From NCBI GenBank assembly GCA_963726265.1, contig CAVSBQ010000002.1, forward strand, positions 800,001-864,000: a DNA stretch of 64,000 nt, written 5' to 3'. The stretch's first letter is position 1; every line of letters starts with the position of its first letter. This stretch comes from Candidatus Aenigmatarchaeota archaeon (lineage in GTDB: Archaea > Aenigmatarchaeota > Aenigmatarchaeia > QMZP01 > QMZT01). Shown here piece after piece: positions 39,001 to 42,000 of this stretch. Made by a program: the position numbers.

Positions 39001-42000
39001 ATGACGTCCAGGACAGCCTGCCTTCGAACCAGTATATTGATTTTGTTAACCAGCCCGCGAACACGTATGTCGAGGGCGGCGAGGTGAATTACAACTGGAG
39101 GCTGGAGGGCCTGGCGCCGGGCAAGGGCGCGACAGTGACCTACAACATCAGCCGCCTGCCGCTGCTCGTCAGCTCTTTCATAGTTATTCTGTGCGTCGTT
39201 GTCCTTCTCGGCATGGGCGCGGTCAAGGTGAGGACGCCCAACATAAGGAAGAAGCATATCAAGAAGAGGGGGGAGCACATCATCATCCTCCAGATAAGAG
39301 GCCCGATAACCAGCGGGCTCAAGGGCGTGATAGTGAAGGACATGGTCACGCCGCTGGGCAGAGTGCTGCCCGAATTCAGCGGCCCGAAGCCCGTCGTAAG
39401 GCAGAGCGAATCAGGGACGGAGCTCCTGTGGAACCTCGGCGACATGAAGCCGAGGAGCGAGATATATCTTTCTTACCGCATCCAGCCGCTGGTCGAGGCG
39501 CAGCTCAAGATGCCGAGGGCGTACCTGAGCTACAGGACTGACGAGGACACGAAGATGCGCGTCTTCTCGCGCCAGGTCATCTTGGAGTAAGCCCAACCCA
39601 TTTGCTAACTTTTAAATTCTGCCGCGGTTTATAATAGTATTATCCCTCGGTAGCTCAACCTGGAAGAGCGATCGGCTGTAGACTTTCGCGCTGTGACTTA
39701 AAGTCGGTTTTACGAGTGTGTTGGTCGTTCGCAGTCGCTCAGAAACCGATAGGTTGTGAGTTCAAATCTCACCCGGGGGATCCATTTCTTTTTACCGATC
39801 AGGGTTACGCTTAAAAAGGCTTGCCCGCATAATATACTTCAATTTCATGTGATTTTGATGAGCATAAACCTTGCGAGACTGGAGCGAAGGGTTTACCTTT
39901 CGGGCATAGTCTTGGCTATCATGCTTATATTGCTCAGGTTCTAGGCCGGCTAAAACTTCTCGGCCTGGAAAACAAAAGGCACACAGGGGACTACAAATGG
40001 CTCAGGAAACGCCGCACGAAAGCATGAAGGGATGGATGAAAGCCGTTTCTTTAGCCGAAATTATAGTCATCCTGAGCCTCGTCATATTGCTCATCTAGAG
40101 CCGGGAGCGCACCCGGGTCTAGATGGCAACTGTTTCTAAAGAGTCTGGATTCGGGGAAGCTCCTTAGACAAAGCTGGATAGAAGGAGGTAATGAAAATGG
40201 CAGAAAGTAACGAATTCAAAAGCATAGGCCTTAGCGGTCAGGCAGTTCCCGGGCAGGCAGGTGCATCCTGTGTGACTTACCTTAAAGGAAGAAGGTATGT
40301 GTCAGGTTGCGCTGAACCGCAAACGAACGGGAAAATGAGCCTTGACTACTGGTCACAGGTTGTGGATATGATGTTAGCCGGCGGTTCAGGCAACGGGCCA
40401 TAGGCCAACATTTATAAATAGCAGCCAACAATAGATTTATCGAGCGGCCAAAGTGGAAAGGTTCACCCGTTCCCATTTCGAACACGGAAGTTAAACTTTC
40501 CGGCGGTCTGGATAGTACTCCTGAAAAGGGGGAACTCCAGATAGCTGCTCACCTCTTTTTGCAGTTTTTCCAGCCTTTTCGCGAATTTAAATATTAGATA
40601 AGATTACAAATAATATCGACCAGCAAAGTATGCAGTTTGACATATGCGAAGCATATGTCTTTCGGCGACATCGAATGACGCATACAGAGTATGCATCCAA
40701 CGAAACATCTGCCCTGGTAGTGTAGCGGCCTATCATCTCGGACTGTCACTTCGAGGACCCGGGTTCAAAAGCGCAAGACGCAGATTTCATCTGCGTCCGC
40801 CTGAAACTCCCGGCCAGGGCGTAAGCGACCGACAGCTTGGATTTATGTTTCAAGCTGTCCTTCACAACGTGGGCCTGTAGCTCAATCGGTAGAGCACCAG
40901 ACTTTTATCTGTCCGGTAAAAGTATGCTGAGGCTTTCGCTTTGCGGCAGCCAATGACAGAACATGGTGCAGAAAGACATCTGGGGGTCGCGGGTTCGATT
41001 CCCGCCGGGCTCATTTTCCTCTTTCGTTGCCAGCTACCGCCGCCAAAACCGCTAAAAAGCCGCGAAAACCGAAAATCGAAAGCCGCCAAACAAGCCACCG
41101 ATAAGTATTTAAAGGCTGAGAACATTTATTTAACTTATCAACTTACACTAAACTATAACTACCATAACCCATGAAATAGCGATTGCATACGCAGGCTGCG
41201 TATATTCATCTCTAAAACTCCGGCCGGCTGTTAAGCCCCGCGAGTTAAGGGTGGTTGCATTAACATTTTGGAACATATGCTAGTCCCCAAGTTCAGAGTT
41301 CTTTCTGAAGAGGAGAAAAAGACGATCCTCGAGAAGTTCAGGACAACCCAGGACAAGCTGCCGAAGATTCTGGAGGCGGACCCGATTGTGGCCACACTGG
41401 GCGCGAAAAGGGGCGATCTGCTCGAGATAACCAGGGATTCGGAAGTTGCCGGACAAAGCCTTTATTACAGGGTTGTCGTCTAGACTGGATGGAAGCATGA
41501 TTGTAGCTATCGTAGGCGGTTTCGGGAAGGAGAGAGAGTGGGTCAGGTACCAGATCGAATCCTTCAACAACTTCATAGACTTCGGCCTCCAGAAGATAAT
41601 AAACGAGGTCGGGACGATACGCGTGGCGCAGGACAAGGAGGACCTCAAGATAAAGTTCGGCGAGGTCACGCTGGGGAAGCCCGTCATGCACGAGGCCGAC
41701 GGCTCGAGCCGCGCGATTTACCCCAACGAGGCGAGGATACGCAACCTGAATTACATGGCTCCTATTTTTGTGAAAATAACCCCGATATTCAACGGCGTGC
41801 AGGAGAAGTCCGAGAACGTCCACGTGGGCGACCTGCCTGTCATGGTCAAGTCGAAGATATGCAACCTCACCGGCATAAACGAAGAAGAGCTCGTCGCGGC
41901 GGGCGAGGATCCGACCGACCCGGGGGGCTATTTCGTCGTCAACGGCACTGAACGGGTGCTGGTACTCATAGAGGAAATCTCGTCCAACAAACCGATTTTC

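Follow-up and report, generated by a model that had tools for sequence, protein, structure and literature searches.

Positions 40711-40821 of the window (the whole 64,000-nt stretch that was analysed, part of contig C2) very probably constitute a working tRNA-Asp(GUC) gene whose T-loop is interrupted by a bulge-helix-bulge (BHB) intron, an assessment that covers the whole explanation, including the spread of one intron family between tRNA genes and its turnover within the genus. The genome measures approximately 1.13 Mb, is 88% complete and includes contigs C1 and C2.

Exon 1 (40711..40769, forward strand) encodes positions 1-59 of the tRNA, comprising the acceptor, the D-arm, the anticodon arm with GTC and the 5′ strand of the T-stem (40759-40763), followed by T-loop nucleotides 54-59. 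A 38-nt intron (40770..40807, forward strand) separates positions 59 and 60, and exon 2 (40808..40821, forward strand) supplies position 60, the 3′ strand of the T-stem (40809-40813), the 3′ strand of the acceptor and a discriminator G, with the CCA end not encoded. The genome-wide survey's note had located this gene at 40711-40822; the gene itself was recovered, but its true end is 40821, one base shorter. Without the intron the cloverleaf contains 20 of 21 stem pairs and the T-loop TTCAAAT, and the intron-less tRNA-Asp genes of two genomes from the same genus (G002 and G003) correspond exactly to exon 1 joined to exon 2.

In the Asp precursor the T-stem forms the outer helix of the BHB, a central helix of 4 bp joins intron positions 40802-40805 to T-loop nucleotides 54-57 (40764-40767), and bulges of 3 nt each are placed at 40768-40770 and 40806-40808. 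Within the intron, 40777-40785 pairs with 40789-40797 to form a hairpin. The helices of the minimum-energy fold were identical to those of this BHB descriptor (4/4 central pairs, 5 outer pairs, and an inner helix of at least 2 pairs plus the 9-bp hairpin). Judged by its sequence, the insert is a textbook archaeal BHB intron, and its splicing is predicted.

The locus lies beside two other interrupted genes, tRNA-Tyr(GUA) and tRNA-Lys(UUU), and a 5S rRNA gene (40440..40553, forward strand; Rfam RF00001, 66.6 bits) neighbours all three. The Tyr gene (39644..39780, forward strand; Rfam 50.1 bits) carries a 63-nt intron at 37/38, fitted to 39682-39744, with a relaxed BHB, and the Lys gene (40871..41013, forward strand; Rfam 59.5 bits) carries a 70-nt intron at 37/38 (40908-40977) with a strict BHB (4,5,4). 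Among the sequencing runs listed for window positions 39600-41050, no RNA run contained this DNA, and the DNA contigs of four runs barely covered the Asp intron. One low-depth DNA joint was seen across the Lys-UUU intron, running from 40903 to 40979 with 5 other letters between, and a relative is probably its source.

Standard finders recovered few of these genes. Within the window ARAGORN reported no tRNAs, and Rfam reported two (Tyr and Lys) and missed Asp. Across the whole genome, ARAGORN with default settings made 14 calls, the number that the survey had given, and these comprised 10 uninterrupted genes and 4 partial misreads of interrupted ones. The ARAGORN intron option returned 35 calls, many with wrong anticodons because it allows only one intron in the anticodon loop. 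Removal of BHBs followed by ARAGORN was dropped, since neighbouring genes were confused and relaxed introns missed, and an anchored solver was used instead.

A new census was made independently of the earlier list of intron borders, combining ARAGORN and Rfam candidates, BHB candidates, an anchored cloverleaf fit and reading by eye. It identified 43 tRNA genes, of which 33 (77%) are interrupted and 10, the same ten named by the survey, are uninterrupted; this fraction may shift because the genome is incomplete and three to four expected isoacceptors were not found in the census (Arg-CCG, Leu-UAA, Leu-GAG and one of Leu-UAG/CAG). Among the 43 genes there are 42 distinct anticodons and the initiator/elongator Met pair, none of them backed by an intact second copy, and the predicted spliced products retain 20-21 of 21 stem pairs in all 33 interrupted genes. 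Outside the 43 genes, a search for T-arm-like places (TTCRA with perfect stems, either intact or split at 59/60) returned 56 candidates, which also served as a negative control; 14 of them had a 7/7 acceptor pairing, but the best fit reached at most 53 with at most 19 pairs and none was credible; this search motif is narrow, so cryptic, split or permuted tRNA genes may exist in addition.

The 33 interrupted genes hold 43 inserts, distributed over site 37/38 (20 entries in 19 genes), the D-arm (9 entries in 8 genes), 29/30 or 30/31 (4 entries), 7/8 (1 entry), the variable region (3 entries) and T-loop 59/60 (6 entries). Up to three introns per gene had been proposed, but the maximum found here was two; in Arg-UCU, the solver could place the 143 nt at 37/38 only by dividing them into two adjoining pieces. 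For several introns in the D-arm, in the variable region and at 37/38 with weak BHBs, the borders may be off by a few bases. About a dozen introns at sites other than 59/60 have only a relaxed BHB (3/4 central pairs or one helix missing) and equally uncertain borders, whereas all six 59/60 introns have 4/4 central pairs and an outer helix of 5. The survey had described T-loop introns of one family in three tRNAs; three genes do share one family there, but six are cut at 59/60, and the inserts of Glu-CUC, Lys-CUU and Ala-UGC are unrelated to that family in sequence.

Alignment and BLAST bore out the claim that Asp, Ala-CGC and Gly-CCC have one intron family (family 1) in common at 59/60. Its members are found at C2:840770-840807 in Asp (38 nt), C2:278227-278264 in Ala-CGC (38 nt; the start of this gene, previously set at 278200, was refitted to 278213) and C2:184212-184250 in Gly-CCC (39 nt). 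Pairwise identities between the three introns were 36/39, 32/39 and 33/39. The highest value belongs to Asp and Ala-CGC, for which the 48 nt of 5′ exon match at only 28/48, and BLAST matches to Ala-CGC were identical at 29/29 positions for Asp and 26/29 for Gly-CCC. A 15-nt hairpin core of the family has four zero-mismatch copies in the 1.13 Mb, all four within tRNA introns, compared with approximately 0.002 expected by chance. The core had been reported from five tRNA genes; exact copies were confirmed in Asp, Ala-CGC, the D-loop intron of Thr-CGU and, inverted, the 37/38 intron of Cys, but not in Gly-CCC. The Thr-CGU and Cys introns share 15-19 nt of core and are otherwise unalignable. Additionally, a second family occurs in Pro-GGG, Pro-CGG and Arg-UCG, and a further hairpin is shared by introns of Ser-UGA and Arg-UCU.

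Among 21 members of family 1 from 10 genomes, both sides change in 6 of the 9 hairpin pairs and 99.5% of the cells in the alignment are paired; the covariation score of the hairpin was reached in none of 500 shuffles. On this covariation, the structure of the intron hairpin is under selection. Among the alignment rows listed, introns of tRNAs with G57 mostly have C opposite and introns of tRNAs with A57 have T, as read by eye.

A single splicing endonuclease gene is encoded in the genome (398-aa ORF, C2:198780-199976), in which Pfam places the N-terminal domain at residues 23-69 and recognises the catalytic domain in two stretches. The protein aligns over residues 8-398 with residues 8-387 of a chain of PDB 4fz2, the ARMAN-2 enzyme (E 2.1e-108). 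Counted on this alignment, the counterparts of ARMAN-2 residues Y160, K161, K224, Y236, H251, R275, K282, D357 and W384 are kept, their roles being described in the available text of PMC3488258, PMC12397907 and PMC3239211. The catalytic triad of the ARMAN-2 enzyme (Y236/H251/K282, according to the accessible part of PMC3488258) is identical and corresponds, by the same count, to Y243, H257 and K288 here. The ARMAN-type specific loop reads GVYK instead of GTYK, with K163 as the counterpart of K161 by the same count; the sections of PMC3488258 and PMC12397907 at hand attribute a broad substrate range to its Y160 and K161, and K224 and D357 are among the residues mutated in the available text of PMC3239211. 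With this full-length alignment and the conserved functional residues, the survey's claim of a three-unit endonuclease holds. By sequence homology the enzyme is of the epsilon-2 three-unit type, and it is predicted to form a homodimer through the L10 loop and its pocket and to cleave both strict and relaxed BHBs. A gene for the RtcB ligase is also present (C2:662647-663915, 518 bits).

The closest homologues of the endonuclease derive from genomes labelled Aenigmatarchaeota (57-83% identity), with Micrarchaeota-labelled proteins at 45-51%; the phylum label used here is taken from the names of those closest genomes. The survey's note had regarded the epsilon type as reported only from Micrarchaeota; the text available from PMC5829648 gives the known distribution as Micrarchaeum ARMAN-1 and ARMAN-2 and Mancarchaeum. 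The supplement of PMC12397907 aligns the specific loop for "four other Candidatus species", which may already include enzymes from outside the Micrarchaeota.

Taken together, these features suggest how the Asp intron would be removed. The T-stem would act as the outer helix, the T-loop letters TTCA (54-57) would pair with TGAA close to the 3′ end of the intron to create the central helix, and the covarying 9-bp hairpin with a short intron stem would provide the inner helix, leaving the two 3-nt bulges. By analogy with the ARMAN-2 system, the epsilon-2 endonuclease would then cut behind the second base in each bulge and RtcB would join the exons. An intron that supplies the inner helix itself, together with a sequence complementary to the near-universal T-loop, could create a valid splice site in nearly every tRNA, which would explain why the family is found at 59/60 of Asp, Ala-CGC, Gly-CCC, Ser-CGA, Gly-GCC and Leu-AAG. 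Copies might reach new genes by reverse splicing with later conversion of the RNA into DNA, or by DNA recombination, and the enzyme may have made this spread possible.

To follow the family within the genus, the genome studied here (G000) was compared with four metagenome-assembled relatives (G001-G004), making five genomes of one genus in which each absence of an intron is read from one contig. In the four genomes with tRNA-Asp, the family intron is present in G000 and G004 and missing from G002 and G003. Ala-CGC carries it in G000, has only a D-loop intron in G003 and G004, has none in G002, and in G001 contains a different 47-nt intron at 59/60. Gly-CCC carries it in G000 and G002, with G003 and G004 having a 50-nt intron at 37/38 instead. 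Finally, the family occupies Gly-GCC and Leu-AAG only in G002 and Ser-CGA only in G004.

Copies also tended to resemble others in the same genome. The Gly-CCC intron of G002 matches Gly-GCC of G002 at 36/39 positions and its own orthologue in G000 at 30/39, and the Asp intron of G000 differs at 4 positions from Asp of G004 and at 3 from Ala-CGC of G000, although this clustering is weak because each copy has only approximately 38 nt. The survey had proposed ongoing transposition, and the occupancy of different tRNA sets in genomes of one genus, by copies that are alike within a genome, agrees with that proposal. As far as aligned introns can tell, the data support a model of turnover during the divergence of a single genus, in which copies would be acquired, passed from gene to gene and dropped. 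Introns at 59/60 of Asp and Ala-CGC are also present in several further genera of this family, so the pattern could partly reflect old occupancy with repeated loss.

How the copies travel is a separate question from whether they do. A DNA-level route instead of reverse splicing, in which gene conversion acts on T-arms that are nearly alike, is possible but somewhat doubtful; it would replace the mechanism and leave the fact of copying intact. The T-arms of Asp and Gly-CCC are identical at 17/17 positions and that of Ala-CGC at 15/17, BLAST matches between the genes extend from the T-stem through the intron, and a reverse transcriptase was found in none of the four other genomes of the genus, yet turnover occurs there. 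Conversely, the hosts Ser-CGA (G004) and Leu-AAG (G002) have different T-stems and share only the 7-nt T-loop with the other hosts, leaving very little homology for recombination, and insertion is base-exact at 59/60 in every host. A reverse TRANSCRIPTASE was also considered as the motor and rejected: the candidate, a 408-aa group-II-intron-like enzyme (C2:208610-209833), is unlinked to the turnover, has counterparts in 0/4 genomes of the genus and 1/22 genomes of the family, and does not lie next to a repeat pair of the sort that marks diversity-generating elements.

It is improbable that the 59/60 introns are simply old and differentially lost, with their likeness imposed by shared constraint and with no copying between genes. 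This reading draws on the 10 of 16 relatives with a good solver-recovered tRNA-Asp that have an intron at 59/60, on full-length matches to the interrupted Ala-CGC in other genera (G019, G015 and G012), and on the constraint that the BHB places on the outer parts of the intron. However, the hairpin letters that are free of this constraint agree fully or almost fully when different tRNAs within a genome are compared, and differ between orthologues (36/39 against 30/39). The 15-nt core also recurs at two other sites, in an intron of the D-loop and, in inverted form, in one at 37/38. Loss alone also fits poorly with a family confined to Ser-CGA of G004 and to Gly-GCC and Leu-AAG of G002, and with the different intron at another site in Gly-CCC of G003 and G004. 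It is extremely unlikely that pseudogene decay or assembly errors account for the interrupted genes, with unassembled genes serving the cell: the 88% completeness and the few missing isoacceptors would allow it, but 42 anticodons and the Met pair lack intact duplicates, the products keep 20-21 of 21 stem pairs, the inserts have BHBs, the same interrupted genes with compensatory changes recur in independent assemblies, and a matching enzyme is encoded.

We also identified, as a side finding that may be new, a tRNA-Leu gene outside the window (locus L120, C2:1060339-1060488) with two cassettes bearing the anticodons UAG and CAG. A common exon 1 runs up to position 30; two tandem 16-nt units follow, and then a common exon 3 that starts at 38. 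Each unit consists of an inner-helix 3′ strand, a central-helix 3′ strand, a bulge and a 7-nt exon (31-37) with TAG or CAG. Both cassettes are unchanged in all 12 of the genes that were fetched, which represent 7 genera, with the surrounding intron variable. Of 48 alternative introns, 39 have a central helix of 4/4 pairs and 9 one of 3/4. The alignment, read by eye, shows changes in the shared 5′ strand that keep it paired with both units, and in 12/12 genes the energies of the two forced folds lie within 3.4 kcal/mol of each other. The region is present in 20/22 other genomes of the family and in 0/58 genomes of the order's other families, and no separate Leu-UAG or Leu-CAG gene was found among the 43. 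From these sequence features we tentatively propose, at slightly less than even confidence, that alternative BHB splicing in cis could let L120 yield both Leu(UAG) and Leu(CAG), with folding on the first or the second unit selecting the anticodon. Alternatively, the gene may make only one product, the other cassette being retained as a pairing partner for the 5′ strand of intron 1, with which the CAG form does make an 8-bp helix. A UAA cassette was sought in tRNA-Leu(CAA) and rejected, as the conserved look-alike in its first intron reads CAA, not UAA.

In the split and tri-split tRNAs of Nanoarchaeum equitans and Caldivirga maquilingensis, one shared piece serves two isoacceptors. In a like manner the shared body of L120 would serve two isoacceptors through BHB-directed processing, but split tRNAs are separate transcripts joined in trans, whereas the L120 cassettes lie in tandem in one gene and would be chosen in cis. 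The available text of PMC4033280 lists both the split and the tri-split tRNAs of these two organisms. A tRNA gene with two anticodon cassettes was not reported in any paper found by our literature search; if alternatively spliced, L120 would be, as far as we searched, the first archaeal gene to give two anticodons in cis.

The nearest known system is Candidatus Micrarchaeum acidiphilum ARMAN-2, whose disrupted tRNA genes and epsilon-2 endonuclease are described in the accessible parts of Fujishima et al. 2011 (PMC3239211) and Hirata et al. 2012 (PMC3488258). Like the archaeon studied here, ARMAN-2 is very small and of the DPANN type, and the two have in common a single-gene three-unit endonuclease with the catalytic triad and the specific-loop lysine, a total of 43 tRNA genes found, and many non-canonical intron sites including 59/60. 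The survey had presented extreme disruption as extended here to a DPANN lineage; the 77% stands, but heavy disruption in DPANN is not new, because ARMAN-2 is itself a DPANN archaeon with 56% of its tRNA genes disrupted (PMC3239211, available text). A genus-polymorphic intron family in several tRNA types also sets the present genome apart, none being reported for ARMAN-2 in the sections consulted.

Similar introns across tRNA species and positions are known from Thermoproteales (2010, Mol Biol Evol 27:2233, as relayed by the available text of PMC4033280 and preprint 10.64898/2026.10.13.758758). On those accounts, Thermoproteales likewise have many genes with more than one intron and a broad-specificity endonuclease. 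Their enzyme is an (alpha-beta)2 form with a crenarchaeal loop, in contrast to the epsilon-2 form with an ARMAN-type loop here, and the best-populated family here is, unlike theirs, bound to 59/60, with the T-loop itself providing half of the central helix. Asgard archaea also have most tRNA genes interrupted and many missed by standard finders, as stated in the accessible part of the same preprint; the present genome differs in holding at least three shared intron families. No paper on tRNA introns of Aenigmatarchaeota was found in the literature search.

Interrupted tRNA genes with introns of this kind are already known from ARMAN-2 and Thermoproteales, and the phenomenon is unusually clear in this small uncultured archaeon. 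Under-calling by standard finders (14 of 43 with ARAGORN) distorts inferences about completeness and codon usage in DPANN archaea. With five genomes of one genus and a single 38-nt element, the system offers a compact natural setting in which gain, copying and loss of BHB introns can be followed at the resolution of single events, and the use of the invariant T-loop as half of the splice site suggests why 59/60 is a recurrent landing place. The combination of a three-unit endonuclease with heavy tRNA disruption is extended from Micrarchaeota to genomes labelled Aenigmatarchaeota, which lends strength to the proposal that the range of the enzyme and the intron load evolved together.

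The tRNA-Asp(GUC) gene (window 40711-40821) was found to be interrupted in the T-loop, between positions 59 and 60, by a 38-nt insert (40770-40807). Excision left a cloverleaf with 20 of 21 stem pairs, comprising a 7-bp acceptor stem, a D-arm, the anticodon loop CTGTCAC, a 4-nt variable region and the T-arm CCGGG TTCAAAT CCCGG. In the precursor, the T-stem provides the outer helix of a bulge-helix-bulge (BHB), TGAA (40802-40805) is complementary to T-loop positions 54-57 (TTCA), and the intron interior contains a 9-bp hairpin (40777-40797) and a short stem. The sequence conforms to a 3-4-3 BHB layout in which both cuts are predicted after the second bulge base (AA/A and AC/T), and the unconstrained minimum-energy fold of the precursor returned the same helices. 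Two same-genus genomes, G002 and G003, carry a tRNA-Asp without the insert whose sequence equals exon 1 plus exon 2, and the intron borders are therefore fixed independently. ARAGORN reported no tRNA in the window, and Rfam missed tRNA-Asp yet recovered tRNA-Tyr (window 39644-39780), tRNA-Lys(UUU) (window 40871-41013) and 5S rRNA (window 40440-40553). The 5S rRNA gene has three interrupted tRNA genes as neighbours; the 16S-tRNA-Ala-23S operon (contig CAVSBQ010000002.1, here C2, 479934-485373) is about 355 kb away.

Across the genome (G000; 1.13 Mb in 4 contigs, 88% complete, 0.8% contaminated), ARAGORN with default settings reproduced the 14 tRNAs listed in the genome-wide survey's note; these were 10 uninterrupted genes and 4 partial misreads of interrupted genes. 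The Rfam tRNA model gave 27 matches at E <= 0.001 and 43 rows at E <= 10. For a new census, BHB-like candidates were listed around all ARAGORN and Rfam places, up to three were removed per locus, and the products were scored for their fit to a fixed cloverleaf, with 7-bp acceptor pairings as anchors; hard loci were read by eye. The census returned the figures claimed by the survey, 43 tRNA genes with 33 interrupted and 10 uninterrupted, together holding 43 inserts. The survey had also described one to three introns per gene: genes with multiple introns were indeed present, but none in the census had three. Inserts occupied 37/38 (20 entries, 19 genes), the D-arm (9 entries, 8 genes), 29/30 or 30/31 (4), 7/8 (1, initiator Met), the variable region (3) and T-loop 59/60 (6: Gly-CCC, Ala-CGC, Asp, Glu-CUC, Lys-CUU and Ala-UGC), the borders of several D-arm, variable-region and weak-BHB introns being uncertain by a few bases. 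The 143-nt insert at 37/38 of Arg-UCU could be fitted only as two abutting pieces. All products had 20-21 of 21 stem pairs, and their anticodons were 42 different ones plus the initiator/elongator Met pair, without duplicates; the census, of an 88% complete genome, did not recover Arg-CCG, Leu-UAA or Leu-GAG. The control, a set of 56 T-arm-like places outside these genes, yielded no credible tRNA gene.

Several of these genes are unusual in other respects. A tRNA-Leu gene outside the window (C2:1060339-1060488, locus L120:1-150) contains, flanked by shared exons, two 16-nt units in tandem that provide two alternative 7-nt middle exons (cassettes, positions 31-37) with TAG and CAG (UAG and CAG anticodons). 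Neither cassette varied among the relatives fetched (12 of 12, from 7 genera); of the 48 alternative introns (four per gene), 39 had 4/4 central pairs and the other 9 had 3/4, and forced folds for the two cassettes lay at most 3.4 kcal/mol apart in all 12. Of the other genomes in the family, 20 of 22 have the region, against none of 58 from the other families of the order, and we found no literature report of such a gene. It may give two isoacceptors by alternative splicing in cis, a reading to which we assign slightly less than an even chance because pairing of the first cassette with the intron 5′ strand could by itself account for its conservation. A separate tRNA-Leu (C2:960937-961076, locus L121:1-140) has a strict BHB at 37/38 that fixes its anticodon as AAG, and this loop is the same in G002, G003 and G004; A at position 34 is unusual for archaea. 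The tRNA for AUA is a tRNA-Ile with the anticodon UAU (C2:639850-639970, minus strand, 47-nt intron at 37/38) and not a second CAU gene, a form known from a few archaea that lack the agmatidine enzyme. The tRNA-Trp intron of some Euryarchaeota encodes a box C/D guide RNA; in the 70-nt intron of tRNA-Trp here (C2:731124-731266, minus strand), no clear C/D boxes were seen by eye. In the rRNA spacer, tRNA-Ala(UGC) has two introns (D-loop, 39 nt; T-loop, 49 nt). Located 17 nt downstream, a 31-nt copy of the tRNA-Ser(GGA) intron start (C2:483518-483548, locus L122:119-149; 93.5% identical) is an intron-like element outside a tRNA gene.

Comparing the 43 inserts all against all with BLAST yielded three groups. 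The first bears out the claim that the 59/60 introns of Asp, Ala-CGC and Gly-CCC form one family (Ala-CGC versus Asp, 29/29 identical; Gly-CCC, 26/29). The second comprises D-arm introns of Pro-GGG, Pro-CGG and Arg-UCG, and the third a hairpin common to the Ser-UGA variable-region intron and the Arg-UCU insert. The 15-nt hairpin core of the first family had 4 zero-mismatch copies in the genome (~0.002 expected by chance), all within tRNA introns: Asp, Ala-CGC and, as the survey had stated, the Thr-CGU D-loop and, inverted, Cys 37/38. Allowing up to 2 mismatches gave 8 matches, 3 of them outside tRNA genes, approximately the chance level. The hairpin covaries strongly: among 21 aligned family members from 10 genomes, 6 of 9 hairpin pairs changed on both sides, 99.5% of cells were paired (slid controls, 29-56%) and the covariation score was reached by none of 500 shuffles.

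To follow these introns among relatives, the Asp, Ala-CGC and Gly-CCC genes were searched in up to 40 related genomes, and the fetched loci were solved with the same solver. The family intron was present in Asp of G000 and G004 and absent from G002 and G003. At Ala-CGC it was found in G000, with only a D-loop intron in G003 and G004, none in G002 and an unrelated 47-nt intron at 59/60 in G001. Gly-CCC carried it in G000 and G002, and a 50-nt intron at 37/38 instead in G003 and G004. Within the genus, Gly-GCC had it in G002 only and Ser-CGA in G004 only, and Leu-AAG of G002 had a related family intron. The Gly-CCC intron of G002 matched that of Gly-GCC in the same genome at 36/39 positions and that of Gly-CCC in G000 at 30/39; by sequence identity, copies from one genome resemble each other more than they resemble their orthologues. 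Many tRNA-Asp genes of the wider family also have an intron at 59/60; these range in length from 32 to 166 nt and differ in sequence, indicating that the site is old or repeatedly hit and its occupants change. A further within-genus difference concerns tRNA-Leu(CAA) (C2:413777-413926; loci L209 and L210), where the first intron (30/31) is conserved in G000, G003 and G004 and a variable-region insert is present in G000, longer in G003 and absent from G004.

The Pfam catalytic endonuclease domain matched twice within one open frame (C2:198780-199976, 398 aa, with an N-terminal domain also present), and no other convincing match was found in the genome. Residues 8-398 aligned with PDB 4fz2, the single-gene, three-unit (epsilon-2) enzyme of ARMAN-2 (E 2.1e-108), substantiating the survey's proposal of such an enzyme. 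Counting on this alignment (ARMAN-2 numbering), the catalytic triad Y236, H251 and K282, the specific-loop residues Y160 and K161, and K224, D357, R275 and W384 were all conserved; the available sections of PMC3488258, PMC3239211 and PMC12397907 describe the roles of these residues, K224 and D357 being the two mutated in the ARMAN-2 study (PMC3239211). An RtcB gene was also present. Scanning one genome per species identified 203 stretches encoding relatives. The best 80 were full-length or nearly so, and among these relatives at 57-83% identity came mostly from genomes labelled Candidatus Aenigmatarchaeota and those at 45-51% mostly from Micrarchaeota-labelled ones. We found nothing relevant in the literature on Aenigmarchaeota/Aenigmatarchaeota and tRNA introns, and the accessible part of PMC5829648 gives the epsilon type as known only from Micrarchaeum ARMAN-1, ARMAN-2 and Mancarchaeum; the supplement of a 2025 structure paper (PMC12397907) aligns the specific loop of four more species, which may include some from outside Micrarchaeota.

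To the observed sequence anatomy, enzyme genes and presence/absence pattern we add a proposed mechanism, in which the epsilon-2 enzyme would cut these sites, RtcB would join the exons and copies would move between genes. Portability of the family intron may stem from its bringing both an inner helix of its own and a sequence complementary to the conserved T-loop, which would leave any T-arm able to complete the splice site. Gene conversion is one candidate route for the copying: it is consistent with Asp and Gly-CCC, whose T-arms are identical, but fits poorly with Ser-CGA and Leu-AAG, hosts with differing T-stems. Duplication of whole genes does not account for the similarity of the Asp and Ala-CGC introns, since 36/39 aligned intron columns are identical versus 28/48 in the 5′ 48 nt of the tRNAs. 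The genome also encodes a free-standing reverse transcriptase of 408 aa (C2:208610-209833, locus L208:3111-4334, minus strand), closest to group II intron enzymes (140.7 bits versus a model cut-off of 300), with no adjoining repeats. Its distribution is patchy: it was found in 15 of 81 genomes of the order (G000 included), in none of the 4 same-genus genomes and in only 1 of 22 family genomes.

The phenomenon is of a kind already known from ARMAN-2 and Thermoproteales. According to the available text of PMC3239211, ARMAN-2 likewise has 43 tRNA genes and 59/60 introns, with the same enzyme type, but 56% of its tRNA genes are disrupted versus 77% here. Intron families common to several tRNA types are described for Thermoproteales in the portion available of PMC4033280, and that of a 2026 preprint (10.64898/2026.10.13.758758) reports none shared among tRNA types in Asgard archaea. 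This case adds a second phylum-level label for the enzyme, a higher intron load and polymorphism within a genus.
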